DNA of 64,000 nucleotides from Vicinamibacteria bacterium (GCA_965116805.1 OZ220713.1:2704594-2768593), one strand, 5' to 3'. Positions 27,352 through 62,747 are shown, counted from the first letter of the stretch. Translations and numbers: made by a program. The notes: generated by a model not told the origin, from the sequence alone.

Positions 27352-27370
27352 TGGGCTGCTCAGCCCGGGA

Positions 27371-28609
27371 TTATCGTGCGGCCAGCGACCGCGGCCGGGA
27401 GGGGAGACGCGGCGCGGCCGCGCGGCCCACCGGATCCAGCTTCGCCAGGTGCTCCGCCAGCGAGCGCACGCTCGCCAGGTTGTTCACGGGAAGGAAGTCG
27501 TGGATGTGGGGAAGCGCCGCGGCCATCCCCCGGGTGAGCGGCTCGTATCCCTCGTCGGACAGCAGCGGGTTCAGCCAGACCACGCGCCAGGCGAGCCCGC
27601 GCAGCCGCTCCATTTCGGACGCCACCAGCGCCGGATCGCCGCGGTCCCAGCCGTCGCTCACCAGGAGCACCACCGCGGCGGAGGTGGGCAGCCGCCGCGC
27701 CCACTCCAGGTTGAACCGGTGGAGCGCTTCGCCGATACGGGTCCCGCCCGACCAGTCGCGCACGGTTTCCGAGGCCTCGCCGAGGGCCCGGTCCACCCGC
27801 CGGTCGGCGAGCTTGCGGGTGATGCGGGTGAGCCGGGTGGCGAAGACGAAAGCCTCCACCCGCCCGGGCGACCCGTGCGAGAGCCCGTAGAGGAAGTGGA
27901 GCAGCACCCGCGCCGTCTGTTCCATGGAGCCGCTCACGTCGGCGAGCACGATGAGCGGCCGCGGTTTCTCCCGGCGCCGCCGCCGCTCGAGGCGCACCCA
28001 CTCGCCGCCCGACCGGAGCCCGCGCCGCAGCGTCCGGCGCAGGTCCAGATTCCGGTTGCCGCCGGGCCGGAACCGCACCACCCGGCGGCGGGCGGCCCGC
28101 CACCCGGCGTCCCGGATCAGCGCCCGCACTTCCCGCAGTTCGTCCTCGTCGAGGTCGGAGAAGTCGCGGTGCTCGAGGGACTCCCGGTCGCTCCAGGTGC
28201 GCCGGGCGAACGGCTGGCGCGGCTGCTCGTCGGCGCCGGTGTCCCTCCCGGGGGCAACCGGCCGGAAGGTCGCCTGCCGGACCGGGGAGCGCTGCTTCCG
28301 GAGCATCATTCCGGGGAGCCGGGCCCGCGTCCAGCGTTCGGGCGGCGTTTCCCAGAACAGCGCGAACGCGGCGTCGAAGAGTTCGAGGTCTTCGCGCCGG
28401 TGAATGAGCAGCGCCCGGGCGGCGGCGTGGAACTCCTCGCGCCGGAAGACCTCGATGAGCGGGAGCGCCTGCGCCAGGTCCAGCATCCGGGCGGTCGAGA
28501 CCGGGAGCCCGATCCCCCGCAGCAGGCGCCCGAAGAGCGTGAGGTTCTGGAGCAGCGGCGGGAGCGCCGCTCCGCGTTCCGGTTGCGGACCCCGCGCCGC
28601 GGCGGTCAA
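27371..28609 (-). CDS. CoxE-like VWA-domain protein
   Basis: VWA MIDAS motif 'LADVSGSM' and the CoxE-family body. A TTG start overlapping the coxD stop (TTGA) is proposed; an ATG at about 28486 is the alternative. Confidence 0.7.
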   Translation of the reverse strand: MTAAARGPQPERGAALPPLLQNLTLFGRLLRGIGLPVSTARMLDLAQALPLIEVFRREEFHAAARALLIHRREDLELFDAAFALFWETPPERWTRARLPGMMLRKQRSPVRQATFRPVAPGRDTGADEQPRQPFARRTWSDRESLEHRDFSDLDEDELREVRALIRDAGWRAARRRVVRFRPGGNRNLDLRRTLRRGLRSGGEWVRLERRRRREKPRPLIVLADVSGSMEQTARVLLHFLYGLSHGSPGRVEAFVFATRLTRITRKLADRRVDRALGEASETVRDWSGGTRIGEALHRFNLEWARRLPTSAAVVLLVSDGWDRGDPALVASEMERLRGLAWRVVWLNPLLSDEGYEPLTRGMAAALPHIHDFLPVNNLASVRSLAEHLAKLDPVGRAAAPRLPSRPRSLAAR

Positions 28610-29517
28610 GAGACTCCGGCGGCCAGCCGGGTGAGGATGGCCCCCGCCCGTTCTCCACGGACCATCTCGAGATCGTCCCGGTACTTGAGCAGCGCGCCCA
28701 GCGTGCGGTCCACCGCGGCCTCGTCGAGGGCGGTCTTCCCGAGCGACGCCAGCGCCATCGTCCAGTCCAGGGTCTCGGACACCCCCGGGCGCTTGAAGAG
28801 ATCGAGCTCGCGCAACTCCTGGGCGAACCGGGTGGCCTCCGCCGCGAGTTGCGCCGCCGCCTGGGGCACCCGCTCGCGGACGATCTCGAGCTCGCGTTCG
28901 TAGCTGGGATAGGGAATCCAGTGGTAGAGGCAGCGCCGCTTGAGCGCGTCGTGGACCTCCCGGGTCCGGTTCGAGGTGAGGACCACGACCGGCGGCGCCG
29001 CCGCCCGGATGGTGCCGATCTCGGGAATCGTGATCTGGAAGTCCGAGAGGACCTCCAGCAGATACGCCTCGAACTCCTCGTCGCTGCGGTCCACCTCGTC
29101 GATGAGCAGCACCGGCCGGCGTTCCGGCGACGAGGTCTCGATGGCGTGCAGCAGGGGCCGGCGGAGCAGGAAGTCCGCACCGAACAGGTCCTGTTGTTCC
29201 ATGGCGGCCCCCCGGCTCTCCGCCAGGCGGATGGCCAGCATCTGCCGGGTGTAGTTCCACTCGTAGGCCGCCTGGCCGATGTCGAGTCCCTCGTAGCACT
29301 GGAGCCGGATCAGCGGGGCGCCGAGCACCGCCGCCGTCACCTTGGCGAGTTCCGTCTTCCCGACGCCGGCCTCGCCCTCGAGGAAGAGGGGGCGCTCGAG
29401 ACGGAGGGCCAGGAAGAGCGCGGTGGCGAGGGCGCTGTCGGCGATATACCCCTGCCCCGCGAGTTCCCCGGTGAGTTCGGGGACCGAGGAAAGGGTCGCC
29501 GTCCGGGTCGCCGACAA
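28606..29517 (-). CDS. CoxD-like MoxR AAA+ ATPase
   Basis: Walker A 'GEAGVGKTE' and Walker B 'LLIDEVDR'. TTG start abutting the coxM stop. Confidence 0.85.
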   Translation of the reverse strand: MSATRTATLSSVPELTGELAGQGYIADSALATALFLALRLERPLFLEGEAGVGKTELAKVTAAVLGAPLIRLQCYEGLDIGQAAYEWNYTRQMLAIRLAESRGAAMEQQDLFGADFLLRRPLLHAIETSSPERRPVLLIDEVDRSDEEFEAYLLEVLSDFQITIPEIGTIRAAAPPVVVLTSNRTREVHDALKRRCLYHWIPYPSYERELEIVRERVPQAAAQLAAEATRFAQELRELDLFKRPGVSETLDWTMALASLGKTALDEAAVDRTLGALLKYRDDLEMVRGERAGAILTRLAAGVS

Positions 29518-30372
29518 CTATCCGGCGCGCTCGGCGGCTGCGGCCAGCGCGCGCTTCGTGTACACCCCGGCGAGGTGGGCCCGGAACTCTCCCGAGGCGT
29601 AGAGATCGCCGAGCGGCTCGTCGAAGGCTTCACCGACGCACGCCGCGGCAGCCGCGATCCGGTCCGCGCTGGCCGGGCCGCCGCAGAGCGCCGCCGCGGC
29701 CGCGTCCGCCAGCACCGCCTTGCCGGTGACCCCGTTGATGCCGATCGCGCAGCTCGCGACGTTGCCGCCGTCCAGCCCGACGCAGGCGGCCACCCCGACC
29801 ACGGCGTAGCTGGAGGCCGGATGGCGGTGCTTCAGGTAGGCGCCGCCCGCCGCGCAGGGAACCCGGACCGAAGTGATGACTTCGTTGTCCGCGAGCGCGG
29901 TGGTCAGGATGTCCACGAAGAAGTCGGAGGCGGCGATCGTCCGTTCGCCGCCCGCCCCAACGGCGGTGACCTCGGCGCCGAGCGCCAGCATCGCGGCGGG
30001 ATAGTCGGCTCCCGGATCGGCGTGGGCCAGGCTGCCCCCGATCGTCCCCCGGTTCCGCACCTGGATGTCCCCGATGGCGGCCGCGGTTTCGGCCAGCATC
30101 GGGCATCCCCCCCGGACCGCGGCCGAGTCGGCTACCGCGGCGTGGGTGGCCAGCGCGCCGATGACGAGGCTGTCGCCGTCGGCGGAGATGTCGGACAAAC
30201 CGGGGATCCGCCCGATGTCCACGAGGGCGGCCGGCTGCGCGGCGCGCAGCTTCATGGCCGGAATCAGGCTGTGCCCGCCGGCGACCAGCTTGGCGTCCGG
30301 AAGCGAGGAAAGCAGCTCCACCGCCTCGGCGACCGAAGCGGCGCGGTGGTAGTCGAATTGGCTTGGAAACAT
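29518..30372 (-). CDS. coxM: Molybdo-flavoprotein medium (FAD-binding) subunit, CoxM-like, form II cluster
   Basis: 'AGGHSLIP' FAD-binding motif and the CO dehydrogenase flavoprotein C-terminal domain. Confidence 0.85.
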   Translation of the reverse strand: MFPSQFDYHRAASVAEAVELLSSLPDAKLVAGGHSLIPAMKLRAAQPAALVDIGRIPGLSDISADGDSLVIGALATHAAVADSAAVRGGCPMLAETAAAIGDIQVRNRGTIGGSLAHADPGADYPAAMLALGAEVTAVGAGGERTIAASDFFVDILTTALADNEVITSVRVPCAAGGAYLKHRHPASSYAVVGVAACVGLDGGNVASCAIGINGVTGKAVLADAAAAALCGGPASADRIAAAAACVGEAFDEPLGDLYASGEFRAHLAGVYTKRALAAAAERAG

Positions 30373-30384
30373 CGGAATCTCCTC

Positions 30385-32745
30385 TCAGGCGCCGTTGCCG
30401 GCCGCCTGGACGGCCCGCCAGATCCTCTCCGGGGTGAGCGGCAGCTCAATGTGGGTGACTCCCAGGGGAGCCAGCGCGTCCAGCACCGCGTTCGCCACCG
30501 CGGGGGTCGCGGCGATGGTGCCCATCTCGCCCGCGCCCTTGACCCCGAGCGGGTTGTGGGGCGACGGGGTCTCGATCCGGTCCACCTCGATCCCCGGCAG
30601 GAGATCGGCGCGCGGCACCGCGTATTCGAGCAGGGTCCCCGAGAGGAGCTGGCCGTCATCGGAATAGGCGCCGTCCTCGGTCAGCGCCTGGCCTACGCCC
30701 TGGACGATGCCGCCCTGGATCTGGCCCTCCACGATCATGGGGTTGATCACCTTGCCCACGTCGTCCACCGCCACGTAGCGGAGGATGCGGACTTCCCAGG
30801 TGTCGGAGCAGACCTCGACCTCGCAGATGTGCGAACTCGCCGGGAAGGTGAAGTTCGCCGGGTCGTAGAAGCTCACGAAATTGAGTCCCGGCTCCACTCC
30901 CTCGGGCAGGTTGTGCGCGGTGTAGGCGGCGAACGCCAGCTCGCCGAAGTCTTTCCCGCTCTCCGGAGAGCCCTTCACGTGGACCCGGCCGGTGTCCCGG
31001 TCGTAGACCACGTCCTCCTCGGCGGCCTCGAGCAGGTGGGCCCCGATCTGGAGGACCTTGGCGCGCACCTTCTCGGCGCTCCTGACGAGCGCCGAGCCGC
31101 CCACACAGGCGCTCCGGCTGCCGTAGGTGCCCATGCCGAAGTTGACGCGGCCGGTGTCTCCGTGGACCACCTCCACGCTCTCGATGGGGACGCCGAGCTC
31201 GTCGGCGACCACCTGCGCGAGGGTGGTCTCGTGGCCCTGTCCGTGGGCGTGGGAGCCGGTGAAGACGCTGATCTGTCCGGTGGGATGGACGCGCACCTCA
31301 CCGCTCTCCCAAAAGCCCACCGCCGAACCGAGCGACCCGGCAACCGCCGAGGGCGCGGGACCGCTGGCCTCGATGCAGCACACGACCCCGACGCCGCGCA
31401 GCTTGCCCTCGGCGCGCGCCTCGGCCTGCGCCTGGCGCATGCCGGCGTAGTCGGCGTTGTCGGCGGCGGTCGCCATCAGCCGGTCGTAGTCGCCGCTGTC
31501 GTAGAGGAACGCCACCGGCGTCTGGTAGGGGAAGTCCTCCTTGGGAATCGCGTTCTGGCGCCGCAGGTCCAGGGGGTCCCGGCCCAGCCGGGCGGCCGCC
31601 AGGTCCACCAGGCGTTCGACGAGGTAGGCCGCCTCCGGCCTGCCCGCGCCCCGGTAGGCATCCACCGGCACCGTGTTGGTGAGCGTGCCGTGCACCTTGC
31701 CGAACACGCCGGGCATCTTGTAGTTCCCGGAGAGCAGCGTGATGTAGAGCGCCGTGGGGATGAGGGGGGCGAAGGTCGAGAGGTAGGCCCCCTGGTTCGC
31801 CCAGGTCTCCACGTCGAGCCCGGTGAAGGTGCCGCCGCTCGTCATGGCGAGCTTGGCGACGGTGACGTGGTCGCGCCCCTGGGAGTCGGTCATCTGGCTC
31901 TCGGTCCGGGTCGCGACCCAGCGGGCGGGCCGGCCCACCTCGCGCGCCACCCAGGGCACGATGACTTCCTCGGGGTAGTGGAAGATCTTGCTGCCGAACC
32001 CGCCGCCCACGTCGGGAGAGATCACCCGCAGCTTGCTCTCGGGAATCCCGAGCGTGAAGGCGGAGAGCAGCAGCCGGATCGGGTGCGGGTTCTGGCTGGT
32101 CGTCCAGACCGTCATCTCTTCCGATGCCGCATCCCACTGCGCCGCCGCGGCCCGCGGCTCCATCGCCGTGGGGATGAGGCGCTGGTTCACGAGCTCGACC
32201 TCCACGATCTCGTCCGCCTCGGCGAACGCCTTGTCGCAGGCCTCCTGGTCACCGAGCGCCCAGTGGTAGGAGACGTTGTCCTCGATCTCGGCGTGGACGA
32301 GGGGCGCACCCTCGTCCATGGCGCCGCGCGCGTCCACCACGGTCGGGAGCGGCTCGTAGTCCACCTCGATCGCCTCGACCGCATCGGCGGCGATGTAGGG
32401 AGTTCGGGCCGCGACCACCGCCACCGAATCCCCGACGTGGCAGACCCGGTCGGTCACCACGACGGGCCGGTCCGGAACCTTGGTGTCGGGCACCAGCCAG
32501 CCGCAGGGGAGCGAGCCGCAGCCGCCGTCCTTGAAGTCCTGGCCGGTGAAGACGGCCACGACGCCGTCCATGGCGTCCGCGGCCGAAGTGTCGATCCGGG
32601 TGATCCGGGCGTGCGCCTCGGGGCTGCGCTTGATGGCCACGTACACCATGTCCGGAAACTGGATGTTGGCGACGTAGCGTCCCTTGCCCTGAATGAAGCG
32701 GGGGTCTTCCACCCGCTTGACCGAAGTCCCTACGTAACGGCCCAT
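30385..32745 (-). CDS. Molybdopterin-binding large subunit, form-II CoxL-like (putative CODH/xanthine dehydrogenase family)
   Basis: Active-site loop 'VDAYRGAGRPEA' (AYRGAGR is the form-II signature). 786 aa. Good RBS (GAGGAGGA). Confidence 0.85.
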   Translation of the reverse strand: MGRYVGTSVKRVEDPRFIQGKGRYVANIQFPDMVYVAIKRSPEAHARITRIDTSAADAMDGVVAVFTGQDFKDGGCGSLPCGWLVPDTKVPDRPVVVTDRVCHVGDSVAVVAARTPYIAADAVEAIEVDYEPLPTVVDARGAMDEGAPLVHAEIEDNVSYHWALGDQEACDKAFAEADEIVEVELVNQRLIPTAMEPRAAAAQWDAASEEMTVWTTSQNPHPIRLLLSAFTLGIPESKLRVISPDVGGGFGSKIFHYPEEVIVPWVAREVGRPARWVATRTESQMTDSQGRDHVTVAKLAMTSGGTFTGLDVETWANQGAYLSTFAPLIPTALYITLLSGNYKMPGVFGKVHGTLTNTVPVDAYRGAGRPEAAYLVERLVDLAAARLGRDPLDLRRQNAIPKEDFPYQTPVAFLYDSGDYDRLMATAADNADYAGMRQAQAEARAEGKLRGVGVVCCIEASGPAPSAVAGSLGSAVGFWESGEVRVHPTGQISVFTGSHAHGQGHETTLAQVVADELGVPIESVEVVHGDTGRVNFGMGTYGSRSACVGGSALVRSAEKVRAKVLQIGAHLLEAAEEDVVYDRDTGRVHVKGSPESGKDFGELAFAAYTAHNLPEGVEPGLNFVSFYDPANFTFPASSHICEVEVCSDTWEVRILRYVAVDDVGKVINPMIVEGQIQGGIVQGVGQALTEDGAYSDDGQLLSGTLLEYAVPRADLLPGIEVDRIETPSPHNPLGVKGAGEMGTIAATPAVANAVLDALAPLGVTHIELPLTPERIWRAVQAAGNGA

Positions 32746-32784
32746 TGCTCTCCTCCTCGCGATCCTCGATGAAAGTTGCCCCGC

Positions 32785-33252
<468 letters not shown>

Positions 33253-33398
33253 GGGGAGGTTCCTCCTCGCCGGGAACGAATCATCCAAATCGCGAGAGTA
33301 TCCGGGAATGGCGGAAATCCGCAAGAGCAGAGGGACCGTCCGCCCCGACCCGGCAGGAAGTGCGCCGGCAACCTAGACTACGGACCGAACCGCAACCC

Positions 33399-40162: not shown

Positions 40163-40603
40163 TCAGGCCTCGATCCTGGACCTCATCTCGGCGAACATCT
40201 CGCGCAGCACCTTTTCGGTCACCGGCTTCAGCAGCCGGGAGGCGAGCGCCGCCAGCGTTCCCCGCACCTGCACCGTGCCCTTCCAGTCGAGCGCGGTTCC
40301 CGAGTCCTCGTCGCGCAGCCGAAGCTCCGCGACGGCGTCGATGGTGGTGCCCGGACCCCGGCCGCGGATCTTCATCCGGGCCTCCTCGAGTTCCACGAGG
40401 TCGGTGAACTCGATGACGTTCTTGGCGTTGAGCCCGACCGTGCCGAGCTTGATGCCGCCCACCACCTCGAAGCGCTTGCCGGGCTCGAGGATGCGGACCG
40501 ACTTCACCCCGGGAGTGCAGGAGGCCACCGACTCGGCATCGGTGACGAATCCCCAGACCTTCTCCCGGGGGGCGCTGATGATCTCGGTCCCTTGGATGTC
40601 CAT
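40163..40603 (-). CDS. coxG: SRPBCC-fold CoxG-like protein (orphan, about 7 kb from the cox cluster)
   Basis: 146 aa; 'ISAPREKVWGFVTDAESVASCTPG' matches the CoxG/SRPBCC family. Confidence 0.7.
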   Translation of the reverse strand: MDIQGTEIISAPREKVWGFVTDAESVASCTPGVKSVRILEPGKRFEVVGGIKLGTVGLNAKNVIEFTDLVELEEARMKIRGRGPGTTIDAVAELRLRDEDSGTALDWKGTVQVRGTLAALASRLLKPVTEKVLREMFAEMRSRIEA

Positions 40604-40654
40604 CGCCGGATTCTACGGGAGGCCCCGGCTTCCGGCCGGGCCGCGCCGGCGCGG

Positions 40655-45091: not shown

Positions 45092-46294
45092 TCAGGGGTC
45101 CTCGACGCGGGTCCAGGCGCCGCACTCGGCGTCGCTGTAGAAGCCGGCATCGGAGGGATCGATCGTGACGGTGAGTTCCGCGCCGGCCCGCGTCTCGACG
45201 AGACCGTCCTCCACGACGTCCTCCTGACCGCCTCCGAAGGCGGCGAGCCGCAGCCAGAGGCACAGGTAGTCGGCGTCCGCGCGGTAGGTGCCGGGCGCGA
45301 TCTGGGCGCCCACCAGCCAGGTGCCCGGACGGATTTCGTCCTGCGTGCCGGTGTGGGGAGGCTCGGCCCGCCACTCCCCGCACTCGGAAGTGGACCGGAA
45401 CGCCGCGTCGCCCGGGTCGATGTCCACGATCTCCTGTCCGGAATCGAAGCGGAGTTCCCTGCCCGCGATGAAGTCGTGATCCGGGGGCGACTCGAACGGC
45501 ACGAGTGCGGCCCGGCCGGCCAGGTAGCCGATGGAGAATCCCGAACGCCGATTCCAGCGGCAGTAGGACTCGGGATCCGTGAAGTAACGACCCGGCGGGA
45601 CTTCGTCACCGACGATCCACTGCCCCCCGCCGAACGAACCCCGGGGTGCGCCGCCGATGAGGGTGAAGTCGAGCCGGCCCGAGTCACGCGTCGCGAGCCC
45701 CGTCGCCTCGTCGTAGCCGTCCTTCCGCGCCGCGAGGGTGGTGTCGCCCTCCAGGTCATGCAGGAAGTACCCGCCGTCGCCTCGCGTCACGGTTGCCTTC
45801 CCCGCGGAGGGGCCGTCGAGCGCGACGACGCGCACATCCGCCACCGGGCGGCCGTTGTGGTTCAAGACCTGCCCGTTGAGGTCGTAGAGATTCGGATTGA
45901 CGGGCGCGACCGCCACTGCGGCTTCGGCGCTGGCCGGCCCTAGAGTGGCGGTGATCCGCGTCTCGCCCGCCGCGTGCGCGAAGACGAAGCCGCGCCCGTC
46001 CACGCTCGCCACCTCGGGCGCGCTCGAACTCCAGAGCGGATCCACCTGCCCGCTGGCGCCGTCGCTGAAGGTCGCCCAGGCCGTCAGTTGCGTGACCGTC
46101 CCGATCTCCATCGGCTCCTCCGGCAGACCCCGGATCTCGAGCGCCGTGGGGACCGGTTCCGGGGGAGGCCCGACAGGCGTCGTCGCATCGCCGCAGCCGC
46201 CGACACCGAGCGCGGACACGATGGTGGCGAGGACCACCGCGCTCGACGCCATCCTCCACAGCACAACCCCAGTCAAGTCCCTTACGCAGGTCAT
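45092..46294 (-). CDS. Hypothetical lipoprotein with an Ig-like (BIG2-type) N-terminal domain
   Basis: Lipobox 'LGVGGCG'. 'LEIRGLPEEPMEIGTVTQLTAWATFSDG' resembles a Big_2 fold. Confidence 0.5.
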   Translation of the reverse strand: MTCVRDLTGVVLWRMASSAVVLATIVSALGVGGCGDATTPVGPPPEPVPTALEIRGLPEEPMEIGTVTQLTAWATFSDGASGQVDPLWSSSAPEVASVDGRGFVFAHAAGETRITATLGPASAEAAVAVAPVNPNLYDLNGQVLNHNGRPVADVRVVALDGPSAGKATVTRGDGGYFLHDLEGDTTLAARKDGYDEATGLATRDSGRLDFTLIGGAPRGSFGGGQWIVGDEVPPGRYFTDPESYCRWNRRSGFSIGYLAGRAALVPFESPPDHDFIAGRELRFDSGQEIVDIDPGDAAFRSTSECGEWRAEPPHTGTQDEIRPGTWLVGAQIAPGTYRADADYLCLWLRLAAFGGGQEDVVEDGLVETRAGAELTVTIDPSDAGFYSDAECGAWTRVEDP

Positions 46295-46331
46295 CCTCCG
46301 GCAGGCTAGCAGCCTGAAGCCGGACCGGTCG

Positions 46332-47507
46332 TCAGTCCGGGGTTGCCGTCAGCAGCCGGTCATGGCGGCGGAGGATGTCCCGGAGGCGTTCGTGCGGGAT
46401 CGCGTAGATCCGGCGGCCGTTCACGCCGGTCATGTCGCGGGCGGCGACCATGGAGTTCACGATGGCCTCCTCGGTGGCCTGCACGACCCCCTCGAAGAGC
46501 GGGTTCAGGTCGGAGTTCGCCAGGATCCGCAATCGGGCCTCGCCGCTCTCGTTGGCGGCGGCCTCCTCGTTGGCGGTCGAGAACGCCACGAAGATGTCTC
46601 CCGAGCCGTTCATCGAGATGCTCCCCAGGCGTCCGAGCCCGAGGGATGCACGGCGGGCCAGACGCTTCAACTGGTGCGGGAGCAGCGGCGCGTCGGTGGC
46701 CGCGACGATGATGATGGATCCGTCCCGTCCTCCCCGAGGGGCGGGAGGACCGGCCTCCGGAGGCGGCGGGTTCTCGGGAAGCAGGTCGGGGATCTCCCGC
46801 CCCACCGGCACCCCGGCGATCTTGAGCTGCGGACGCCGGCCGAAGTTGGACTGCACCAGGACGCCCACCGTGAAGTCCGCCCCGCCGGTCCCGACCCGGC
46901 GCGAGGCGGTGCCGATTCCCGACTTGAACTCGAAGGTGCGCATCCCGGTGCCGCCTCCCACCGAGCCCTCCTCGACCGGCCCTCCACGGGCGGAATCGAG
47001 CGCGGCGAACACGTGCTCGCGGCGGACGTGGAAACCGGTGATGTCGTTCAGGAACCCGTCCCAGGTCTCGGCGACCATCGGCAGCGTCCAGGCGCGAAAT
47101 CCGAGGTTCCGCTCCGCCCAGGCGATCGCCGCCTCGTGGACCGCGCCGACGCTGTAGGTGTTCGTGATGAGCACCGGCCCCTTCAGGATCCCCCGGTCGC
47201 TGACCCAGGTCGTGCCGGTCATCTCGCCGTTCCCGTTGAGGGCGAACCAGTTGGCGAACACCCCGACGCGGCTCATCCGGCCGCGCGGCAGCACCGCGGT
47301 GACCCCGGTCCGGACCGGCCCCTCCTCCCGCAGGATCGTGGTGTGCCCCACCTCCAGTCCGGAAACGTCGGTGATGGCGTTCAGCGGGCCGGGATCGCCC
47401 TCGAAGGGCACTCCCAGGTCCCGGGCGCGGGTCGGTGTCTGGGCGGGAGCGCCGGCGGCGATCGAGGAGATGATCACGGCGGCGCCGAACGTGCGGCGGG
47501 ACTTCAT
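46332..47507 (-). CDS. P1/S58-family (DmpA-like) aminopeptidase, secreted
   Basis: Signal peptide, then 'ITDVSGLEVGHTT' and 'GGTGMRTFEFKSGIGTASR' (autoprocessing Gly-Ser/Thr region) characteristic of the DmpA/ArgJ fold. Confidence 0.75.
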   Translation of the reverse strand: MKSRRTFGAAVIISSIAAGAPAQTPTRARDLGVPFEGDPGPLNAITDVSGLEVGHTTILREEGPVRTGVTAVLPRGRMSRVGVFANWFALNGNGEMTGTTWVSDRGILKGPVLITNTYSVGAVHEAAIAWAERNLGFRAWTLPMVAETWDGFLNDITGFHVRREHVFAALDSARGGPVEEGSVGGGTGMRTFEFKSGIGTASRRVGTGGADFTVGVLVQSNFGRRPQLKIAGVPVGREIPDLLPENPPPPEAGPPAPRGGRDGSIIIVAATDAPLLPHQLKRLARRASLGLGRLGSISMNGSGDIFVAFSTANEEAAANESGEARLRILANSDLNPLFEGVVQATEEAIVNSMVAARDMTGVNGRRIYAIPHERLRDILRRHDRLLTATPD

Positions 47508-47553
47508 CGTTTCGGCCCTCCTGCGGGGCGGCGGCGCCCGGTGGGGGCGCGAT

Positions 47554-48516
47554 TCAGGCGGTATCGCCGGCTCTCCCGGCGGTAGCGAACGTCTCCGCGC
47601 AGCCGGCGCAGCAGAACCAGTAGGTCTCGCCGCCCGATTCCACCCGGTGCGGCGAGTCCCGGGAGACGGTCATCCCGCAGATCGGATCCACCACCAGGTC
47701 GTCGCTCGGAGTCTCGAGCGCGATCCCGACCATCGGGGCCGGCGCGGCCTCCTCCGAAGCAGCCTCGGGCCGCTCCGCCGCCTGCCGCCCCTCCACGATC
47801 TGGGCGAGGATGCTGAGCGCGATCTCGCCGGGGGTCTCGGCGCCGATGTCGAGCCCGGCGGGGGACCGGAGCCGGCCGACGTCGGCTTCGGAAACACCCA
47901 TCCCGACGAGCCGTTCGCGCACCGCCGCCGACCGGCGCGGACTCGCGACCAGGCCCACATAGCGGGCGCGGCCGCCGGTCAACGCAGCCTTCAATGCCTC
48001 CCACTCCCCTTCGCCGTGGCCGGCGACCACACAGAAGGCCCCCTCGGCCGCGCTGTCGAGGTCTTCCGAGGTCTCGGCGGTCCGAACCTCCATCCCGAGC
48101 GCCTCGCCGAGCGCCGCCAGCGATTCCACGATGGGCGAACTCCCCGCCAGCAGCAGCAGCCGCGACGGCAGATAGGGCTCCAGGTGGATGTCGAGAGCGC
48201 CACCGCTCACACAAGCCATGTGTTCCTCCAGAACTCCTTCCTCCGCCTCGACGCCCTCGGGAGGGCTGTCCGGGGAGATGCGGAGCAGCCGGGGCGCTCC
48301 GTCCGCGAGCGCCCGCAGCGACTCGCGCCGGACCGCCGGTTTGACGCAGGTCCCGCCGACGAAGCCCCGAAACCGTCCGTCGCCGGTGACGATCGCCTTG
48401 GCGCCGGGACGGGCGGAGGTGGGGCGTTCCGCGCGCACCACCGTCGCCAGGACGAAGGGCACGCCGTCCCGGTAGAGACGGGCGGCCGCGGCGAAGACGT
48501 CGGTCGGTCCGGTCAC
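47554..48516 (-). CDS. XdhC/CoxI-family maturation factor with a C-terminal YHS/TRASH-like metal-binding motif
   Basis: XdhC N- and Rossmann domains, then 'DPICGMTV...ETYWFCCAGC' Cys-rich YHS-like tail. Confidence 0.75.
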   Translation of the reverse strand: MTGPTDVFAAAARLYRDGVPFVLATVVRAERPTSARPGAKAIVTGDGRFRGFVGGTCVKPAVRRESLRALADGAPRLLRISPDSPPEGVEAEEGVLEEHMACVSGGALDIHLEPYLPSRLLLLAGSSPIVESLAALGEALGMEVRTAETSEDLDSAAEGAFCVVAGHGEGEWEALKAALTGGRARYVGLVASPRRSAAVRERLVGMGVSEADVGRLRSPAGLDIGAETPGEIALSILAQIVEGRQAAERPEAASEEAAPAPMVGIALETPSDDLVVDPICGMTVSRDSPHRVESGGETYWFCCAGCAETFATAGRAGDTA

Positions 48517-48538
48517 CGCCGCGTTCCGGCGCGGCCCC

Positions 48539-50884
48539 CTACCGGGTCGCCGCGGCGCCGTGTTCGTTCAGCACGTTCCAGACGCGCGCCGGGGTCATGG
48601 GAATCTCCATGTGACGCACCCCGAGGTGCCAGAGCGCGTCCACCACCGCGTTCACGACGGCCGGCGGCGCGCCCACCGTGGCGGACTCGCCCACCCCCTT
48701 GGCGCCGATCGGATGGTGCGGCGAAGGCGTGACCGTTTCGCCGAGCTCCCAGTGCGGGGTCTCCATCGCGGTGGGCACCAGGTACTCCATGAAGTTGCCC
48801 CCGGTGATGTTCCCGTCCGCGTCGTAGGAGATCTCCTCGAGGAGCGCGGGCGCGATCCCCATGGTGAGCCCGCCGTGGATCTGGCCGTCCACGATCATCG
48901 GGTTGATCCGCACGCCGCAGTCGTCCACCGCGACGAAGCGGCGGATCCGCACCTGGCCCGTGCCGCGGTCGATGTCCACGCAGCAGATGTAGGACCCGAA
49001 CGGGAAGGTCAGGTTGGGCGGGTCGTAGTAGGAGATCGCCTCCAGCCCGGCTTCCATTCCCTGCGGATGGTTCGTGTAGGCCGCGAAGGCGATGTCCTGG
49101 ATGGTCTTCGCCCGGTCCGGGGAGCCCTTCACATGGAACTTCCCCTGCTCCCACACGAGGTCGGCTTCGTCGGCTTCGAGCAGGTGGGCGGCGATCTTCC
49201 GCGCCTTCTCCCGGATCTTCCGCGACGCGATGGACGCCGCGGCGCCCGCGGTCGGGGTGGAGCGGCTCGCGTAGGTGCCGAGGCCGTAGGGCGCCGTATC
49301 GGTGTCCCCTTCCTCGACCTGGATGTCCTCCGGCGGGATTCCGAGTTCCTCCGCGATGATCTGCGCGTAGGTGGTCTCGTGCCCCTGCCCCTGTGACTTG
49401 GTGCCGAAGCGGGCGATCGCCTTCCCGGTGGGGTGGATCCGGATCTCGGCCGAGTCGAACATCTTGATCCCCAGGATGTCGAAGGTCTTCGACGGGCCGG
49501 CGCCCACGATCTCGGTGAAGGAGGAGATGCCGATCCCCATCAGCTCGCCGCGGGCGCGTTTGTCGGCCTGCTCGGCCCGGAGATCCTGGTAGCCGATCAT
49601 GTCCATGGCCTTCTCGAGCGCCGCGCCGTAGTTCCCGCTGTCGTACTCCCAGCCGAGCGCCGACTGGTACGGGAACTGTTCGGGCTTGATGAAGTTCCGC
49701 AGGCGGAAGTCCGCCGGGTCCTCCCCGTTCTCGCGGGCCAGCAGGTCCACCATGCGCTCGATGGCGTGCACCGCCTCGGTGACGCGGAACGAGCACCGGT
49801 AGGCGATCCCGCCCGGCGGCTTGTTCGTGTAGACCCCGTCGACTGACACGTGGGCGTTCTCGAGGTCGTAGGACCCGGTGGCGACGTGGTAGAGCCCGGC
49901 CGGGAACTTGGACGGGTTCGCCGCCGCGTCGGAATACCCGTGGTCGGCGACGGTGTCCAGCTTGAGGGCCGTCACCTTCCCGTTCTTCGATCCGAGCGTC
50001 GCCGAGATGTGGTAGTCGCGGGCGAAGGAATCCGCCTGGAGGTTCTCCGAGCGGTCCTCGATCCACTTCACCGGCTTGCCGGTGACCACCGAGGCGGCGG
50101 TCGCGAGCACGTAGCCGGGATAGACCGGCACCTTGCCCCCGAAACCGCCGCCGATGTCGGGCGAGATGACCCGGATCTTGTGCTCGGCGAGGCCGAGATG
50201 GGCGGTCACGAGCGCCACCACCGTGCGGATGGCGTGCGGGGCCTGGGTGGTCAGGTAGAGGGTCAGGTGGCCCTCTACCGGGTTCCAGCTCGCCACGCAG
50301 CCGCACGTCTCGATCGAAGCCACGTGGATGCGCGGCAGGTGCATCTTCTGCTCGACGACGGTGTCGCAGCCGGCGAGCGCCGCCTCCGTCCCGTCGGCGT
50401 CCCCATGCTCCCAGTGGAAGATGTGGTTGCTGTCCTTGTCGTCGCGGACCTTGGTCGCCCCGGGCTTCAGCGCCTCGTGGGGGTCCACCACCACCGGAAG
50501 CGGGTCGTAGTCGACTTCGAGGGCGGCGGCGCCGTCGGCGGCCGCGTAGCGGGACGTGGCCACGATCGCCGCCACTTCCTGCGCCTGGTACTTGACCGTG
50601 TCCACCGGCAGCACCATCTGCTGGTCGCTCATCAGGGTCGGCATCCACGCCAGCTTGAAACCCTCGAGGGTCTTCCCGGTGATCACCGCGGCCACCCCGT
50701 CGACCGCCATCGCGGTGTCCTCGTGGATCTTGGTGATCTTCGCGTGGGCGTAGGGGCTCCGGGCGATGTCCAGGTAGAGCATTCCCGGGAGCTTGACGTC
50801 GTCGATGTAGCGGCCCTGTCCCCTGATGAAGCGGGCGTCTTCCTTTCTCTGGACGGAGTGTCCGAGACCTCTGCACTCAGCCAT
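48539..50884 (-). CDS. coxL: Form-I CO dehydrogenase large subunit CoxL (Mo-Cu type)
   Basis: Active-site loop '[14 protein letters not shown]' (AYRCSFR is the form-I signature). 781 aa. Confidence 0.9.
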
Positions 50885-51359
50885 CGCTGTTCTCCTTCAT
50901 CAGTTCGCTGGCCCGCTGCACCGCTCTCACGATGTTGACGTAGCCGGTGCACCGGCACAGGTTGCCGGAGATGCCCCAGCGGATCTCCTCTTCGGATGGA
51001 TCCGGGTTCTCTTCGAGGAGCGCCTTCGAGGTCAGCATCATCCCGGGGGTACAGAAACCGCACTGGAGTCCGTGTTTCTCGGTGAATCCCTGCTGGACCG
51101 GATGGAGGCCGCCGTTTCCGAGTCCCTCCACGGTCGTGACCTCGGCGCCGTCGGCCGCCACGGCGAACACCGTGCAGCTCTTGGCGGGCACGCCGTTCAG
51201 GAGCACCGTGCAGGCGCCGCAGGAGGTCGTGTCGCACCCGATGTGGGTGCCCGTGAGGCCGAGTTCCTCGCGGATGAAGTGCACGAGCAGCAGCCGGGCC
51301 TCCACTTCGCGGGTGTGTTCTTCGCCGTTGATGGTGACGCTGATCTGGTGGGAACTCAT
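50877..51359 (-). CDS. coxS: CO dehydrogenase small (2Fe-2S) subunit CoxS
   Basis: '[11 protein letters not shown]' and 'CGFCTPG...CRCTGY' motifs. ATGA overlap with coxM and 8-nt overlap with coxL. Confidence 0.9.
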
Positions 51360-52225
51360 GACGCCTCCCTCGCCCGGGCGAGCGCGCTGGAGGCCGCCCG
51401 ATGGGTGAGCACGCGGACGACCGCGCGCTTGTAGTCGGCGGACCCCCGGTGGTCGTCAGCCGGATCGGCCGCCGCGGCGGCCGCTTCGGCGGCAGCGTCA
51501 AGCGCCGCGTCACCGCCGTCCGAACCGGCGAGCGCCGCCTCGGCGGCGCCGGCCTGGATCGCGCTGAGGCCCACGTTGGTGAGCGCCACTCCCGCGCCGG
51601 CGATCCGCCCGCCGTCGAGCTGCAGTTGGACGGCCACCGCCGCCACCGCGTAGTCGCCGACCTTCCGCTCGAACTTCTGGTAGGCGCCTCCGGAGCCGGG
51701 CCCGGCCTCCGGGATGCGGATCTCCGTCAGGATTTCCCCTTCTTCGAGGCAGGTCGAAAACGGCCCCGTGAAGAAATCGGACGCGGCGATCGTCCGCTGG
51801 CCGGAGGGGCCGGCGGCGACGAACGAGGCACGGTAGGCGAGCATGGCCGCCGGGTGGTCGTTGCCGGGATCGGCGTGGGCGACGTTCCCGCCCACGGTCG
51901 CCAGGTTCCGCACCACCGGATCGGCGATGACGCGGGTGGTGTCGGCGAGCAGCGGGTAGCGGCTCTGGACCAGGTCCGACTTCTCCAGAGCGGACTCGCG
52001 GGTCATCGCCCCGATGCAGAGGGACCCACCCTCTTCGCGGATTCCGGAGAGCCCGGGGATTCTCCTCAGGTCCACCAGCGCGGCCGGCTCCGCCAGCCGG
52101 AACCGCATCATGGGGATGAGGCTGTGTCCGCCGGCCAGCAGCTTGGCCTCAGGGTTCGCCAGCAGCAGCCGGCTCGCCTCCTCCAGGGTGTCGGGAGCGT
52201 GATAGTCGAAAGACGGTGGAATCAC
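51356..52225 (-). CDS. coxM: CO dehydrogenase medium (FAD) subunit CoxM
   Basis: GTG start at '[11 protein letters not shown]' with RBS AAGGAGGGG. 'AGGHSLIP' motif. The upstream 73 codons of ORF 51356..52444 are treated as a non-coding extension. Confidence 0.8.
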
Positions 52226-52458
52226 GGAGTCCCCTCCTTTTCCGGACTTTCGAGCATACCAGTGCGTTTGGCGAGTAGAGCGCCCACAATTCGGGTGGCG
52301 CGTGGGCGAGGGACCGCCGGCCAGTCCTCCCGGTGGAGGCCGGCATCGCGCGGGAGCGCGAAACCAGCGCCGAGGACGCAGAGTCCTGCCAATGGGGGTG
52401 CTGCAACTCCTTCGAGTCCCCACCCGGCACCGGTTCTGATTCAATCCGCGCTCGGACC

Positions 52459-52737
52459 GTGTCTCAATCCTCCCCGCCGCGAGCGGGCGCCTGGAAACGC
52501 AGCCTCCGGCTGATCGCGGTCCTCCTGGCGATCTGGTTCACGGCGTCGCTCGGCCTGGGAGTCCTGCTCGCGGAGCCGCTCAACCGGATCTGGATGGGCG
52601 GCTTCCCGCTCGGCTTCTGGTTCGCCCAACAGGGCGCGATCCTGATCTTCCTGGTCCTGCTGGTCGTGAACGCGATCGCCATGGATCGGATCGAGGGGAA
52701 GGCCGACCGGTCCGAAGACACCGAGGATCCTTCGTGA
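52459..52737 (+). CDS. Small membrane protein, DUF4212-like symporter partner
   Basis: 92-aa two-TM protein, 'GGFPLGFWFAQQG' motif, stop overlapping the symporter GTG start. GTG start inferred. Confidence 0.55.
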   Translation: MSQSSPPRAGAWKRSLRLIAVLLAIWFTASLGLGVLLAEPLNRIWMGGFPLGFWFAQQGAILIFLVLLVVNAIAMDRIEGKADRSEDTEDPS

Positions 52738-54431
52738 GCATCGCCGGCTGGACCCTGGTCTTCGTCGTCGGCAGCTTCGCCCTCTACAGCGCCATCGCCG
52801 TCGCGAGCCGGGTAGGGACGACCTCGGGCTTCTACGTGGCGGGACGCGGGGTCTCCGCCCTCGCGAACGGCATGGCGACGGGCGCCGACTGGATGAGCGC
52901 CGCGTCGTTCATCTCGATGGCGGGGCTCATCTCCTTCATGGGCTACGACGGGGCGATCTACCTCATGGGGTGGACGGGCGGCTACGTCCTGCTCGCCCTG
53001 CTGGTAGCGCCCTATCTCCGCCGCTACGGCCGCTACACGATTCCGGAGTTCGTCGGCGACCGCTTCGCGTCCCAGGCCGCCCGGCTCACCGCGGTCGTGT
53101 GCGCGGTCTTCATCTCGTTCACCTACGTGGCGGGGCAGATGCGCGGCGTCGGAGTGGTCTTCTCGCGCTTCCTGACGATCCCGGTGGAGTACGGCGTGGC
53201 CATCGGCGGGATCATCGTGCTCCTCTACGCCACGCTCGGGGGGATGCGCGGGATCACCTACACCCAGGTCGCGCAGTACTGCGTGCTGATCGTCGCCTTC
53301 CTGATCCCGGCAGGGGCCATCTCCTGGATGATGACCGGAACCCCAATCCCCCAGATCGGCTTCGGCTCGCCGCTGATCGAGGGCGAACGGGCCGGCGTGG
53401 CGCTCCTGCGGGCGATCGACCAGATCCACGCCGATCTCGGGTTACCCGAGTACACGGGCGCGTTCCTCGCGGGGAAGAAGACGCTCCCCGACGTCTTCGC
53501 CATCACCATGGCGCTCATGACCGGGACGGCGGGACTCCCGCACGTCCTGATCCGCTTCTACACCGTCAAGACCGCCCGCCTCGCCCGCTGGAGCGTGATG
53601 TGGGCGCTCTTCTTCATCGCGATCCTCTACACCACCGCTCCGGCGGTCGCCGCCTTCGCCCGGGTCAACATGATCCAGACGCTTCACAACACGCCCTTCG
53701 CGGAGGCCCCGGACTGGTTCCGCAACTGGGCGGCCACGGGGCTCATCCAGTTCACCGACCGCAACGGCGACGGCCTCATCCAGTACAGCGAGGGGCCGGG
53801 GGCGGAACTCGCCATCGATCGGGACATCATGGTGCTCGCCAACCCCGAGATCGCCGAGCTGCCGGCGTGGGTCGTGGGGCTGGTGGCCGCGGGCGGCCTG
53901 GCGGCGGCGCTCTCCACCGCGGCCGGCCTGTTGCTCGTCATCTCGGCATCGGTCTCCCACGACCTGCTCAAGAGCTTCCTGCGGCCTGGCATGAGCGAGC
54001 GGAAGGAGCTGTTGGCCGCCCGGCTCTCGGCCGCCGGCGCGTGCGTGGTGGCGATCATCGTCGGGATCTATCCGCCCGACTACGTCGCGGCCGTCGTCGC
54101 TTTCGCCTTCGGGCTGGCCGCCGCCAGCTTCTTCCCGGCGCTGGTCCTGGGGGTCTTCACCACCTGGGTGACCGCCCGCGGCGCGGTGGCCGGCATGATC
54201 GCCGGGACCGGGTTCACCGCCGTCTACATCGGCTGGTTCAAGGTCTTCGAGTGGAGCGGCCCGGAGGCGTGGTGGTTCGGGATCAGCCCGGAAGGGATCG
54301 GCACCCTGGGCATGCTGATCAACTTCGGCGTCACCTGGTTCGTGAGCCGCCGCACCGGCCCGCCGCCGGCGGACAGCGCGCGGATGGTGGCGATGCTCCG
54401 GGGGGAAAGGGCAAACGAAGCCTCGGGTTAG
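52734..54431 (+). CDS. Sodium:solute symporter (SSS family, cation/acetate-symporter-like)
   Basis: 565 aa, about 14 TM segments, SSS signature regions. Confidence 0.85.
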   Translation: MSIAGWTLVFVVGSFALYSAIAVASRVGTTSGFYVAGRGVSALANGMATGADWMSAASFISMAGLISFMGYDGAIYLMGWTGGYVLLALLVAPYLRRYGRYTIPEFVGDRFASQAARLTAVVCAVFISFTYVAGQMRGVGVVFSRFLTIPVEYGVAIGGIIVLLYATLGGMRGITYTQVAQYCVLIVAFLIPAGAISWMMTGTPIPQIGFGSPLIEGERAGVALLRAIDQIHADLGLPEYTGAFLAGKKTLPDVFAITMALMTGTAGLPHVLIRFYTVKTARLARWSVMWALFFIAILYTTAPAVAAFARVNMIQTLHNTPFAEAPDWFRNWAATGLIQFTDRNGDGLIQYSEGPGAELAIDRDIMVLANPEIAELPAWVVGLVAAGGLAAALSTAAGLLLVISASVSHDLLKSFLRPGMSERKELLAARLSAAGACVVAIIVGIYPPDYVAAVVAFAFGLAAASFFPALVLGVFTTWVTARGAVAGMIAGTGFTAVYIGWFKVFEWSGPEAWWFGISPEGIGTLGMLINFGVTWFVSRRTGPPPADSARMVAMLRGERANEASG

Positions 54432-60978: not shown

Positions 60979-62148
60979 TCAGTTCCGCAGCCGCGCCCCC
61001 TCGGTTCCGGCGATCGCCCCGCCCAGGAAGCGCCGGAAGTCCGTTCCCCCGGTGCCGCGCGCCGCGGTACCCGGATCAGCCTGGCGCACGATGTAGTCGT
61101 TCACGATCGCCATGTGGACGCGCCGGAGTTCGGCAAGCGCCTCCACCGCGCCGTCGTAGGCGTTCCTGACGGCGCGGTCGCCGGTGGCGGCCGCGAACCG
61201 GCGGACCGCCCCGCTCGCCTCCACCGCTTCGATGAACCGCCGGTGCCGGGGATTCATGTAACGCCGCATGTCCAAGTGGGGTGCTCTGGCCGCCTCCGGC
61301 TGCCGAACGGAGAGCGCCGCGTCGAAACACTGGATGAGCGGGCTCTGGGCGGCGCTCCCGCCGGCAAGGACGAGCGGCTCCGCCAGGTCGGTCCCCTCGT
61401 AGCGCACGCCCGGCTCGAACCACCCGGAAAAAGGCGGCCGCACCCGGCGGTAGAAGACGTGCGGGTCGCAGCCCTCGCGGGTGCGCTCGGTGAGCACCGT
61501 GATGCGGCCGATGGTCTCGCCCAACCGTTCGAGCTCGGCAGCCAACGTCGCGGCGTCTCCCGCCTCGGCGTCCATCTCCATCCGGACGATCCGGGCCGGC
61601 TCCTCTCCCCCGCACGCCTCGATGGCTACCGCGATGGTGAGGAACCAGGTCTCGTCCGTGCTGCCGTGGATACCGACCAGGTTCACGAGGTTCTCGACCT
61701 CGATGGGGCCTGCGGGATCCAGCCGCCGCCAGTTGTGCATGGCCAGGCTCGCGTGGGAGAGGATCGGCGGACGCCCCAGCCGCCGCGACAGCGCGACGAG
61801 CGGACAGGCGAGCGGGGGCGGGAGGCTGGCCGCCGGCGGCTCTGTGGCGTGCACGTAGGCGCCGGCGAAGAAGGTGAGCAGCAGCATGGCCCGCTCGACC
61901 TCGGGGCCATCCGCCAGCGGCGCGGGGTCCAGTTCCGGTAGCGCCGCGAGATCGCGGCGGGCCCGGCCGACCAGGTAGCGCGCGGAAACGTCCTTCGCCA
62001 TCTCTTCCCACGCCTCGAAACCCGGCGGCAGGCGCCGGAGCGGCTCGTAGGCCGGCAGGAAACCCCGGGGCCCCGGGACGCCGCCGGCGGCGGCCAACTG
62101 GCGAAGCGGCTCGACCGCGGTCATGGAGAAGAAGGCGCCGGCTCCCAC
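60979..62148 (-). CDS. Indoleamine 2,3-dioxygenase-like heme dioxygenase
   Basis: 'GGSAAQSPLIQCFD' matches the IDO-family GGSAGQSS...FQ signature. Length and helical character are consistent. Confidence 0.65.
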   Translation of the reverse strand: MGAGAFFSMTAVEPLRQLAAAGGVPGPRGFLPAYEPLRRLPPGFEAWEEMAKDVSARYLVGRARRDLAALPELDPAPLADGPEVERAMLLLTFFAGAYVHATEPPAASLPPPLACPLVALSRRLGRPPILSHASLAMHNWRRLDPAGPIEVENLVNLVGIHGSTDETWFLTIAVAIEACGGEEPARIVRMEMDAEAGDAATLAAELERLGETIGRITVLTERTREGCDPHVFYRRVRPPFSGWFEPGVRYEGTDLAEPLVLAGGSAAQSPLIQCFDAALSVRQPEAARAPHLDMRRYMNPRHRRFIEAVEASGAVRRFAAATGDRAVRNAYDGAVEALAELRRVHMAIVNDYIVRQADPGTAARGTGGTDFRRFLGGAIAGTEGARLRN

Positions 62149-62216
62149 CGGACGCGCGCGGAGTGTGCCACGGCGCCCGGCCTCCTCCGTATGATCGGCC
62201 CCGCCTGGAGGCTCCG

Positions 62217-62747
62217 ATGCGCACCGCCCTTCCCTTCCTGTTCGCCCTGATCACCGCCCTCGCCTGGGGCCTCTACGGACCGACGCTCGGCCAGGCGCGC
62301 CTCGCGGACGCGACCGCGAGCCCCTTCAAGCCGTACCTGGGGATCGGGATCGCCTACCTGGTGGTGGCGATCGCGGGCGGCGCCATCGGCATGTGGCTCC
62401 GGGGGGACAACTTCTCCTTCACCCCGATCGCGGGCAGCAGCCTCGCCTGGGGGTTCGCGGCGGGACTCCTGGGAGCGCTCGGCGCCTTCGGACTGACCAT
62501 GGCGATGTTCACCGGCGGCGCCCGCATCCCCCACGCGGTCATGCCGGTGGTCTTCGGAGGCGCGGTCACGATCACCGCGATCTCGACGCTGCTCCTCTCG
62601 GGAGGGCGGCTGCGGGGCGGGCCGATGCTCTGGGTCGGGATCGCGGGAGTGCTGCTGTCAGTGCTGCTGATCACGACGAACACCCCGCACGCGCCGCCGC
62701 CGGCCAAGGCGGCGGCGCCGGCTGCACCCGACAGTCCGCCGAGTTGA
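62217..62747 (+). CDS. Hypothetical four-TM membrane protein with a Pro/Ala-rich tail
   Basis: Start at the internal ATG of ORF 62163..62747. Divergent from the IDO-like gene. Confidence 0.5.
   Translation: MRTALPFLFALITALAWGLYGPTLGQARLADATASPFKPYLGIGIAYLVVAIAGGAIGMWLRGDNFSFTPIAGSSLAWGFAAGLLGALGAFGLTMAMFTGGARIPHAVMPVVFGGAVTITAISTLLLSGGRLRGGPMLWVGIAGVLLSVLLITTNTPHAPPPAKAAAPAAPDSPPS

Follow-up and report, generated by a model that had tools for sequence, protein, structure and literature searches.

Of the biological sinks for atmospheric carbon monoxide (CO), the main one is due to aerobic CO dehydrogenase. XdhC proteins generally act as chaperones that handle the molybdenum cofactor (Moco) for members of the xanthine oxidase family. 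The delivery of copper to the Mo-Cu CO dehydrogenase (CODH) has to date been modelled in Oligotropha (Afipia) carboxidovorans only, in a scheme that invokes, for the accessory protein CoxF, a phytase-like activity and a putative Cu motif that is weak (PMC4240915). There, CoxD-dependent sulfuration of Mo comes first and CoxE/CoxF-dependent Cu insertion follows, and CoxF and CoxE mutants make a CODH that contains Mo and sulfane sulfur and no Cu (PMC4240915). Here we analysed a 64,000-nucleotide stretch of a Vicinamibacteria bacterium genome (GCA_965116805.1 OZ220713.1:2704594-2768593; hereafter the window), in which the CODH genes coxMSL are followed by a gene for an XdhC-family protein with a Cys-containing C-terminal tail. 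Our analyses suggest that this gene, here called coxF-YHS, encodes a CoxF with an appended metal module, which would be a candidate route of copper to the Mo-Cu centre.

The coxMSL operon and its fourth gene

Four closely packed genes occupy positions 47554-52225 on the minus strand, in the order coxM-coxS-coxL and then the XdhC-family gene. The large-subunit gene coxL (48539-50884, 781 aa; Pfam Ald_Xan_dh_C, MoCoBD_1 and MoCoBD_2) scores 1205.1 bits against the NCBIfam equivalog model for the aerobic CODH large subunit (TIGR02416, cutoff 991.15). Its active-site loop, AYRCSFR (residues 361-367, codons at 49784-49804), includes Cys364, the predicted Cu ligand. Given the TIGR02416 score, this loop and the order coxM-coxS-coxL, we assign the coxL at 48539-50884 to the form I Mo-Cu CODHs. 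Upstream, coxM (51356-52225, 289 aa) encodes the medium subunit that binds flavin adenine dinucleotide (Pfam FAD_binding_5 and CO_deh_flav_C). It has a GTG start with a Shine-Dalgarno sequence, AAGGAGG, 7 nt upstream, and the N-terminus of its product (VIPPSFDYH) is similar to that of O. carboxidovorans CoxM (VIPGSFDYH). The stop codon of coxM overlaps the ATG of coxS (50877-51359, 160 aa; the [2Fe-2S] small subunit, Pfam Fer2_2 and Fer2) by 4 nt, as ATGA, and coxS in turn overlaps coxL by 8 nt. The open reading frames, Pfam domains, TIGR02416 match and loop thus bear out a preliminary description of the locus as form I coxMSL followed by an XdhC-family gene, which is also, as that description had it, the only accessory gene within the operon.

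The fourth gene (47554-48516, minus strand) begins with GTG after an intergenic gap of 22 nt and encodes a CoxF-type XdhC-family maturation factor of 320 aa with a C-terminal YHS domain. Its XdhC core (47797-48474) consists of an XdhC_CoxI domain (PF02625; residues 15-80, 69.2 bits, cutoff 24.3) and the XdhC Rossmann domain (XdhC_C, PF13478; residues 121-240, 89.5 bits, cutoff 29.7). The protein scores far under the cutoffs of the NCBIfam XdhC equivalog models. In blastp searches against the cox cluster of O. carboxidovorans plasmid pHCG3, the protein is the reciprocal best match of CoxF (36% identity over about 260 residues; E 4e-35 and 2e-43), compared with E 1e-15 and 26% identity for CoxI. 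The core holds the Cys57 of the family and a motif, M100-A-C102-V-S-G-G, that is of the form M-x-C-x-S-x-G and aligns with M107CPSHGTM of Oligotropha CoxF, which Pelzmann et al. proposed as a Cu-binding motif (PMC4240915). C102 occurs without exception in 142 representatives; CoxI-type proteins do not have it.

Gene order in relatives places the protein in the same way. Orthologues of coxF-YHS occupy the coxF slot, which in Oligotropha follows coxD-coxE. The genes are arranged coxM-S-L-G-D-E-F(YHS)-mocA-x-I in Paraburkholderia aromaticivorans and M-S-L-G-D-E-F(YHS) in loci of Terriglobales, and variations on this order are found in Deinococcus sp. AJ005 (M-S-L-G-x-F(YHS)-D-E) and Natronorubrum bangense (G-M-S-L-F(YHS)-D-E-x-I). 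From the reciprocal best match, the coxF slot in relatives and the M-x-C-x-S-x-G motif, we identify the fourth gene as an orthologue of CoxF. Its assignment to CoxI was considered and is ruled out by reciprocal blastp and synteny. The label 'XdhC/CoxI-family' in the preliminary description therefore holds for the family, given both Pfam domains, but the protein is not a generic CoxI-like stand-in. The same correction applies to annotation practice, in which genes of this type are labelled 'XdhC family protein' or 'coxI'. The loci of Ktedonobacteraceae show the order M-S-L-F(YHS)-G, which matches the Thermogemmatispora operon written 'coxMSLIG' in the literature (PMC6776052).

The core is followed by an Ala/Pro/Glu-rich linker that is predicted to be disordered (residues 245-274; 47695-47784), and whose length and sequence differ among orthologues. 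The tail itself (residues 275-311; 47584-47694) was described earlier as YHS/TRASH-type, and the profile scan agrees: Pfam YHS (PF04945) matches with 32.3 bits (E 9.7e-8) against a gathering score of 30.3, and there is a weaker match to TRASH_HVO_1752_C. The strings that had been quoted from the C-terminus are present in the protein (DPICGMTVSRDSPHRVESGGETYWFCCAGCAETF). Its putative ligands D277, C280, C302 and C306 follow the YHS ligand pattern D/C-x2-C ... C-x3-C, and an invariant C-G-M places a Met, M282, close by the first Cys. In a 51-sequence alignment D277, P278, C280, G281, M282, V284, F301, C302 and C306 are invariant, while 'FCC' varies at its second Cys. Six-frame translation of the window showed the tail to be the sole instance of a YHS-type motif; the motif scan for other copper-handling genes gave no HMA-like and no second YHS motif in the 64 kb.

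Distribution and variants of the tail

The combination of XdhC_CoxI, XdhC_C and YHS recurs, at identities as low as 39%, in most of the 120 best-matching clusters from a collection of 5.8 billion proteins. One genome per species was scanned, which gave at least 584 relatives, and the 80 best loci were examined. The YHS tail is encoded in all 80. These loci belong to Acidobacteriota, Chloroflexota, Gemmatimonadota, Actinomycetota, Myxococcota, Bacteroidota and Gammaproteobacteria; the closest, with up to 94% identity, come from the window's own acidobacterial clade ('Candidatus Marinacidobacterium' and relatives). Four further contexts are on plasmids, in Thermomicrobium roseum, Deinococcus sp. 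AJ005, P. aromaticivorans and the haloarchaeon N. bangense, and in all four the gene adjoins one annotated as 'aerobic carbon-monoxide dehydrogenase large subunit'. A chance match, a frameshift or a fusion artefact as the source of this architecture is ruled out by its recurrence in these clusters and in 80/80 loci. Several orthologues have two YHS domains in tandem.

We mapped the cox genes of the 80 loci by tblastn and then read the CoxL loops, treating a locus as fully flanked if at least 9 kb was available to each side of it (39 loci). A form I-type CoxL gene is present in 67 of the 80 loci and in 38 of the 39 fully flanked ones, and the loop scan returned AYRCSFR 61 times and AYACSFR 12 times. 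None of the fetched loci has form II CoxL (AYRGAGR) as its sole cox genes. In the four loci that have a form II CoxL and no fetched form I CoxL, there is either AYRCSFR in a partial CoxL match (L065) or a second coxM, which in L069 and L083 is accompanied by a second coxS. CoxF-YHS is thus spread over at least seven bacterial phyla and a haloarchaeon, nearly always beside a CoxL with the Cys loop, and the fusion shows a tight association with CoxL proteins in which the Cu-ligand cysteine is retained.

The AYACSFR loop, in which Arg is changed to Ala and Cys is kept, marks an actinobacterial CoxL clade with genes just upstream of CoxF-YHS (L033, L040, L049, L050, L055, L057, L058, L064, L071, L074, L075 and L081). 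In L040, L055, L057 and L064 such a CoxL shares the locus with a canonical AYRCSFR CoxL. Four Terriglobales/Acidobacteriaceae loci (L026, L031, L072 and L077) have, upstream of coxM (at about 1500-2900), two additional CoxF-like pieces that are short and lie on opposite strands, as well as a full CoxF-YHS after coxE.

Searching with the core only (residues 1-250) against 1.84 billion cluster representatives gives a ranking that tails do not affect. Among the best 150 matches, 100 have the YHS tail by motif, or 86 of 142 by Pfam. About 18 of the 150 have instead a long linker that ends in a Cys-Cys motif (...SCCQG, GCCGG, SCCAG), and in at least one of these (P0147) the gene directly follows a form I coxL. 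In one representative (P0154; L088:10001-11038, AP019797.1), a CopZ-type HMA domain recognised by Pfam, with the motif GMSCAHC, replaces the YHS domain; its genes are ordered coxM-S-L-G-D-E-F(HMA)-mocA beside a CoxL with AYRCSFR. As a matched control, 17 CoxI-type paralogues in the same loci were inspected, and none has a YHS or Cys-Cys tail. These searches suggest that CoxF here, as in most lineages outside Alphaproteobacteria, carries a C-terminal YHS/TRASH-type domain on a linker of about 25 residues that is predicted to be disordered. Three unrelated thiolate modules occur at one position of a single orthologous group and are tied to the Cu-ligand loop of CoxL, which argues for soft-metal handling. 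The metal would most likely be Cu(I), because of the HMA case and the chemistry of the enzyme.

Long low-complexity linkers with a terminal Cys-Cys and no YHS are seen, among other CoxF orthologues, in P0129, P0143, P0147, P0157, P0164, P0190, P0203, P0206, P0211, P0249, P0254 and L090:10001-10819. A few YHS-bearing CoxF proteins, including that of Natronorubrum, also have Cys-Cys motifs inside the linker. Among the 150, fusions of CoxF to MocA, a MobA-like cytidylyltransferase, occur both without YHS (four: P0144, P0162, P0193 and P0201) and with it (MocA-CoxF-YHS, at least three: P0214, P0224 and P0246). Such fusions link the CoxF subfamily to the synthesis of cytosine-dinucleotide Moco.

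Possible roles of the tail

The best reading of the data, to which we give a probability of about 0.55, is that the YHS tail of CoxF delivers Cu(I) to the form I Mo-Cu CODH. In this scenario, the tethered YHS domain would take Cu(I) from the cytoplasmic pool and pass it on to the conserved C102 motif of the CoxF core, or else straight to the folded apo-CODH at its Mo-SH/Cys364 site. With this hand-over the assembly of [CuSMoO2] would be complete. CoxF-YHS would act alongside two partners, an AAA+ ATPase similar to CoxD and a VWA protein similar to CoxE, and would not take their place. The ligands predicted here, an Asp and three Cys, have also been proposed in an adenylyl cyclase of M. phlei with a Cu-specific YHS sensor, in which the YHS domain confers activation by Cu2+, with Zn, Fe, Co, Ni and Cr inactive (PMC4626032).

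Several points weigh against copper delivery. Oligotropha CoxF works without the tail, and the tail is therefore non-essential to the family. Between about 15 and 29 of the 150 representatives are without a Cys-rich tail, some of them fragments or frameshifted calls. In the TRASH archetype L24e the bound Zn/Cd is structural, phenol hydroxylase has a YHS-like region with no copper link, and the YHS of toluene-4-monooxygenase is metal-free in crystals (PMC4626032). Where the tail lies with respect to the core is not reliably given by the structure model described below. In the window, the mechanism also has to assume that CoxD and CoxE homologues linked to a form II enzyme may serve the form I enzyme in trans.

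A broader proposal, to which we would give slightly less than even odds, is that CoxF is a two-part Cu chaperone in most CO-oxidising lineages. The core would dock on apo-CODH, and a swappable thiolate arm (YHS, tandem YHS, HMA or Cys-Cys) would pick up Cu(I) and place it in the Mo-S site. If so, the textbook system of Oligotropha would be an exception that lost the arm, the physiological Cu donor of Mo-Cu CODH would have been identified from sequence, and the four genes coxMSL-coxF(YHS), which both the window and Thermomicrobium have, would represent the smallest dedicated unit.

The AlphaFold2 model of the full protein has a mean predicted local distance difference test score (pLDDT) of 86 and a predicted template modelling score of 0.64. 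The pLDDT is above 90 over most of the core, below 50 at residues 252-270 and 85-95 in the tail. The best folds in the PDB for the XdhC core are 2WE7, 2WE8 and 3ON5 (Foldseek E 1e-15 to 1e-11; phmmer E 4e-13). Given that Foldseek with the full-length model was dominated by the core and uninformative on the tail, the tail was modelled by itself, which gave a fold of beta-hairpins plus helix with a pLDDT of 86. The top PDB matches of this model are eL24/L24e chains, with a root-mean-square deviation of about 2.0 A over 41 residues and template modelling scores of 0.58-0.60. All of them have E above 0.8, which is non-significant because the domain has only 40 residues. Sequence searches of the tail against PDB chains gave nothing, and a profile of 20 tails matched only phenol hydroxylase PhN (E 1e-4) and eL24 (E 0.01).

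These matches would agree with a structural zinc ribbon, in which the tail holds Zn(II) permanently and docks CoxF on CoxL, CoxE or CoxD, with no copper carried. The nearest solved folds are those of Zn/Cd-binding eL24/L24e, the profile match to PhN falls on its YHS-like region, and direct Cu binding by YHS has not been demonstrated in Cu-ATPases (PMC4626032). We nevertheless consider a zinc ribbon unlikely. Besides the non-significance of the Foldseek matches, the putative ligands begin with Asp instead of Cys and are accompanied by an invariant Met, as in the Cu-responsive YHS, and the tandem duplication recalls the metal-binding domains of Cu-ATPases. Orthologues also swap in a CopZ-type HMA domain or short unstructured Cys-Cys tails that would be incapable of ribbon docking; this replacement, together with the link to the Cu loop of CoxL, argues against a purely structural ribbon.

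A role as Cu sensor or gate, in which the tail would sense Cu and switch the CoxF core in its activity or its conformation with no hand-over, seems quite improbable to us. It would agree with the biochemically studied YHS of the M. phlei cyclase, a Cu-specific allosteric switch with the same ligand set (PMC4626032). However, the linker of that cyclase has 8 residues, and the disordered linkers of 20-130 residues in CoxF proteins are ill-suited to allosteric coupling; the short Cys-Cys tails and HMA domains of orthologues are typical of hand-over by chaperones.

We regard it as very unlikely that the tail handles sulfur, with its Cys carrying persulfide or protecting or delivering the Mo-bound sulfido ligand as an extension of the role of XdhC in sulfurated Moco. 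Cys-rich tails could in principle bear persulfides, the XdhC family handles sulfurated Moco, and CoxF has been proposed to shield Mo-SH from oxidation (PMC4240915). A metal is nonetheless indicated by the HMA replacement and by the Asp/Cys/Met ligand pattern of the YHS domain. CoxI-type XdhC paralogues also serve Mo-S enzymes, yet none of the 17 surveyed has such a tail, and the tail follows the Cu-ligand Cys loop of CoxL and not form II enzymes.

The gene content around coxF-YHS raises another possibility, which is that of a self-sufficient system in which the XdhC-YHS protein makes coxD, coxE and coxF dispensable and coxMSL plus one gene suffice. Thirteen of the 39 fully flanked loci, including all close relatives of the window, have only coxM-S-L-F(YHS) within 10 kb. 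The separately fetched megaplasmid locus of T. roseum (L084), an organism that oxidises CO (PMC2615216), shows the same four-gene layout. Yet a separate accessory operon that includes coxE is reported for T. roseum (PMC6776052), the gene itself is coxF, and a CoxD or CoxE homologue lies within 10 kb of CoxF-YHS in the other 26 of the 39 fully flanked loci. Moreover, the window itself has coxD-, coxE-, coxI- and coxG-like genes, and we judge self-sufficiency to be extremely unlikely.

These genes are all on the minus strand, and most lie next to a form II cluster (29518-33324) composed of coxS2 (32785-33324), coxL2 (30385-32745) and coxM2 (29518-30372), with AYRGAGR as the CoxL2 loop. It is followed by a CoxD-like MoxR/AAA+ ATPase (28606-29517; Pfam AAA_5 and AAA), whose homologues in the cox clusters of further genomes have 53-64% identity, and by a VWA protein of the CoxE type (27371-28603, exact start codon uncertain; Pfam VWA_CoxE, 201.9 bits). 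Next is an XdhC paralogue without a Cys-rich tail (26338-27351; Pfam XdhC_CoxI and XdhC_C), which is of the CoxI type and closest to O. carboxidovorans CoxI (blastp E 5e-27). A stand-alone coxG homologue of the SRPBCC type (40163-40612; Pfam COXG, 94 bits) lies between both cox clusters, about 7 kb from the coxMSL-F operon and beside a beta-lactamase-family gene. It is 98% identical to its counterpart in a relative (L005), where it has the same relative position. In this window coxD and coxE, about 18 kb from coxF-YHS, thus sit with the form II enzyme (26338-33324) and not with the form I CODH.

The preliminary description had suggested that the tail may compensate for an absence of coxDEF. 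That absence is true of the operon apart from coxF, but not of the window, where the gene itself is coxF and coxD and coxE are found at 27371-29517. Compensation is contradicted by the same identity and by the 26 of 39 loci with coxD or coxE beside CoxF-YHS. Since CoxF-YHS usually co-occurs with coxD and coxE, we regard the tail as an addition to the CoxDEF system and not as a substitute.

The surroundings of the operon are partly conserved. Beginning 46 nt after coxF-YHS is a gene for an S58 peptidase of the DmpA type (46332-47507, minus strand), which has a strong ribosome-binding site and is kept in L004 and L005, and not in more distant relatives. Divergent from coxM, a pair of genes for a DUF4212 small membrane protein and an SSF sodium:solute symporter (52333-54431, plus strand) is at the same position in six of six close relatives (L004-L009). 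A promoter and terminator scan of positions 46000-53000 did not find a sigma-70-like promoter, and terminator-like sites were no more frequent than background. Elsewhere in the window there are genes for an IS110-family transposase (49-1425), a HipA-type toxin kinase (5114-6472) and a homologue of bacterial type of indoleamine 2,3-dioxygenase (60979-62250; Pfam IDO, 285 bits).

Comparison with known systems

The sequences discussed here are publicly available under the automatic annotation 'XdhC family protein', and databases also show their Pfam architecture. We found no paper that links XdhC or CoxF with YHS or TRASH, in a search that left most subscription journals outside and in which absence is not proof; papers that list cox accessory genes leave the tail unmentioned. 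A recognisable soft-metal domain on CoxF in most phyla would provide a defined, mutable candidate copper site, and would make the copper-insertion step directly testable. The YHS, HMA, Cys-Cys and tailless forms are a natural set of variants for comparison, and they offer a rationale for choosing accessory genes in heterologous expression of Mo-Cu CODH.

The closest described protein is CoxF of O. carboxidovorans OM5 (pHCG3, 280 aa), which has in common with the protein of the window the XdhC_CoxI and XdhC_C domains, the M-x-C-x-S-x-G motif and a form I cluster. However, Oligotropha CoxF ends soon after the Rossmann domain, with no YHS and no C-terminal Cys, whereas the CoxF of the window has both. 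The gene also differs in position: Oligotropha coxF directly follows coxD-coxE, while coxF-YHS directly follows coxL, with coxD and coxE at the distance given above. O. carboxidovorans CoxI belongs to the same Pfam families, but its identity to coxF-YHS is lower (26%) and it has no C102 motif. The same two-domain fold is found in XdhC of Rhodobacter capsulatus, in 2WE7/2WE8 (the M. smegmatis homologue of Rv0376c) and in 3ON5. These proteins are without the Cys motif of CoxF and without a C-terminal metal domain, and their clients are copper-free.

For the tail, the YHS domains of the M. phlei class III adenylyl cyclase and of the N-termini of Cu-ATPases belong to the same Pfam family. The cyclase has the same D-x2-C...C-x3-C at the C-terminus of an enzyme (PMC4626032). 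Its YHS, on a linker of 8 residues, works as an allosteric switch that depends on Cu, whereas the YHS of the window is attached by a disordered linker of about 25 residues to what is predicted to be an assembly factor.

By analogy, the HMA chaperones CopZ and Atx1 and the CXC tail of CCS present a soft-metal site on a flexible arm beside a client-binding domain. The tail in the window is predicted to be a TRASH-like ribbon and differs in this from the ferredoxin-like HMA of CopZ and Atx1, but one CoxF orthologue does carry an HMA domain at the same position.

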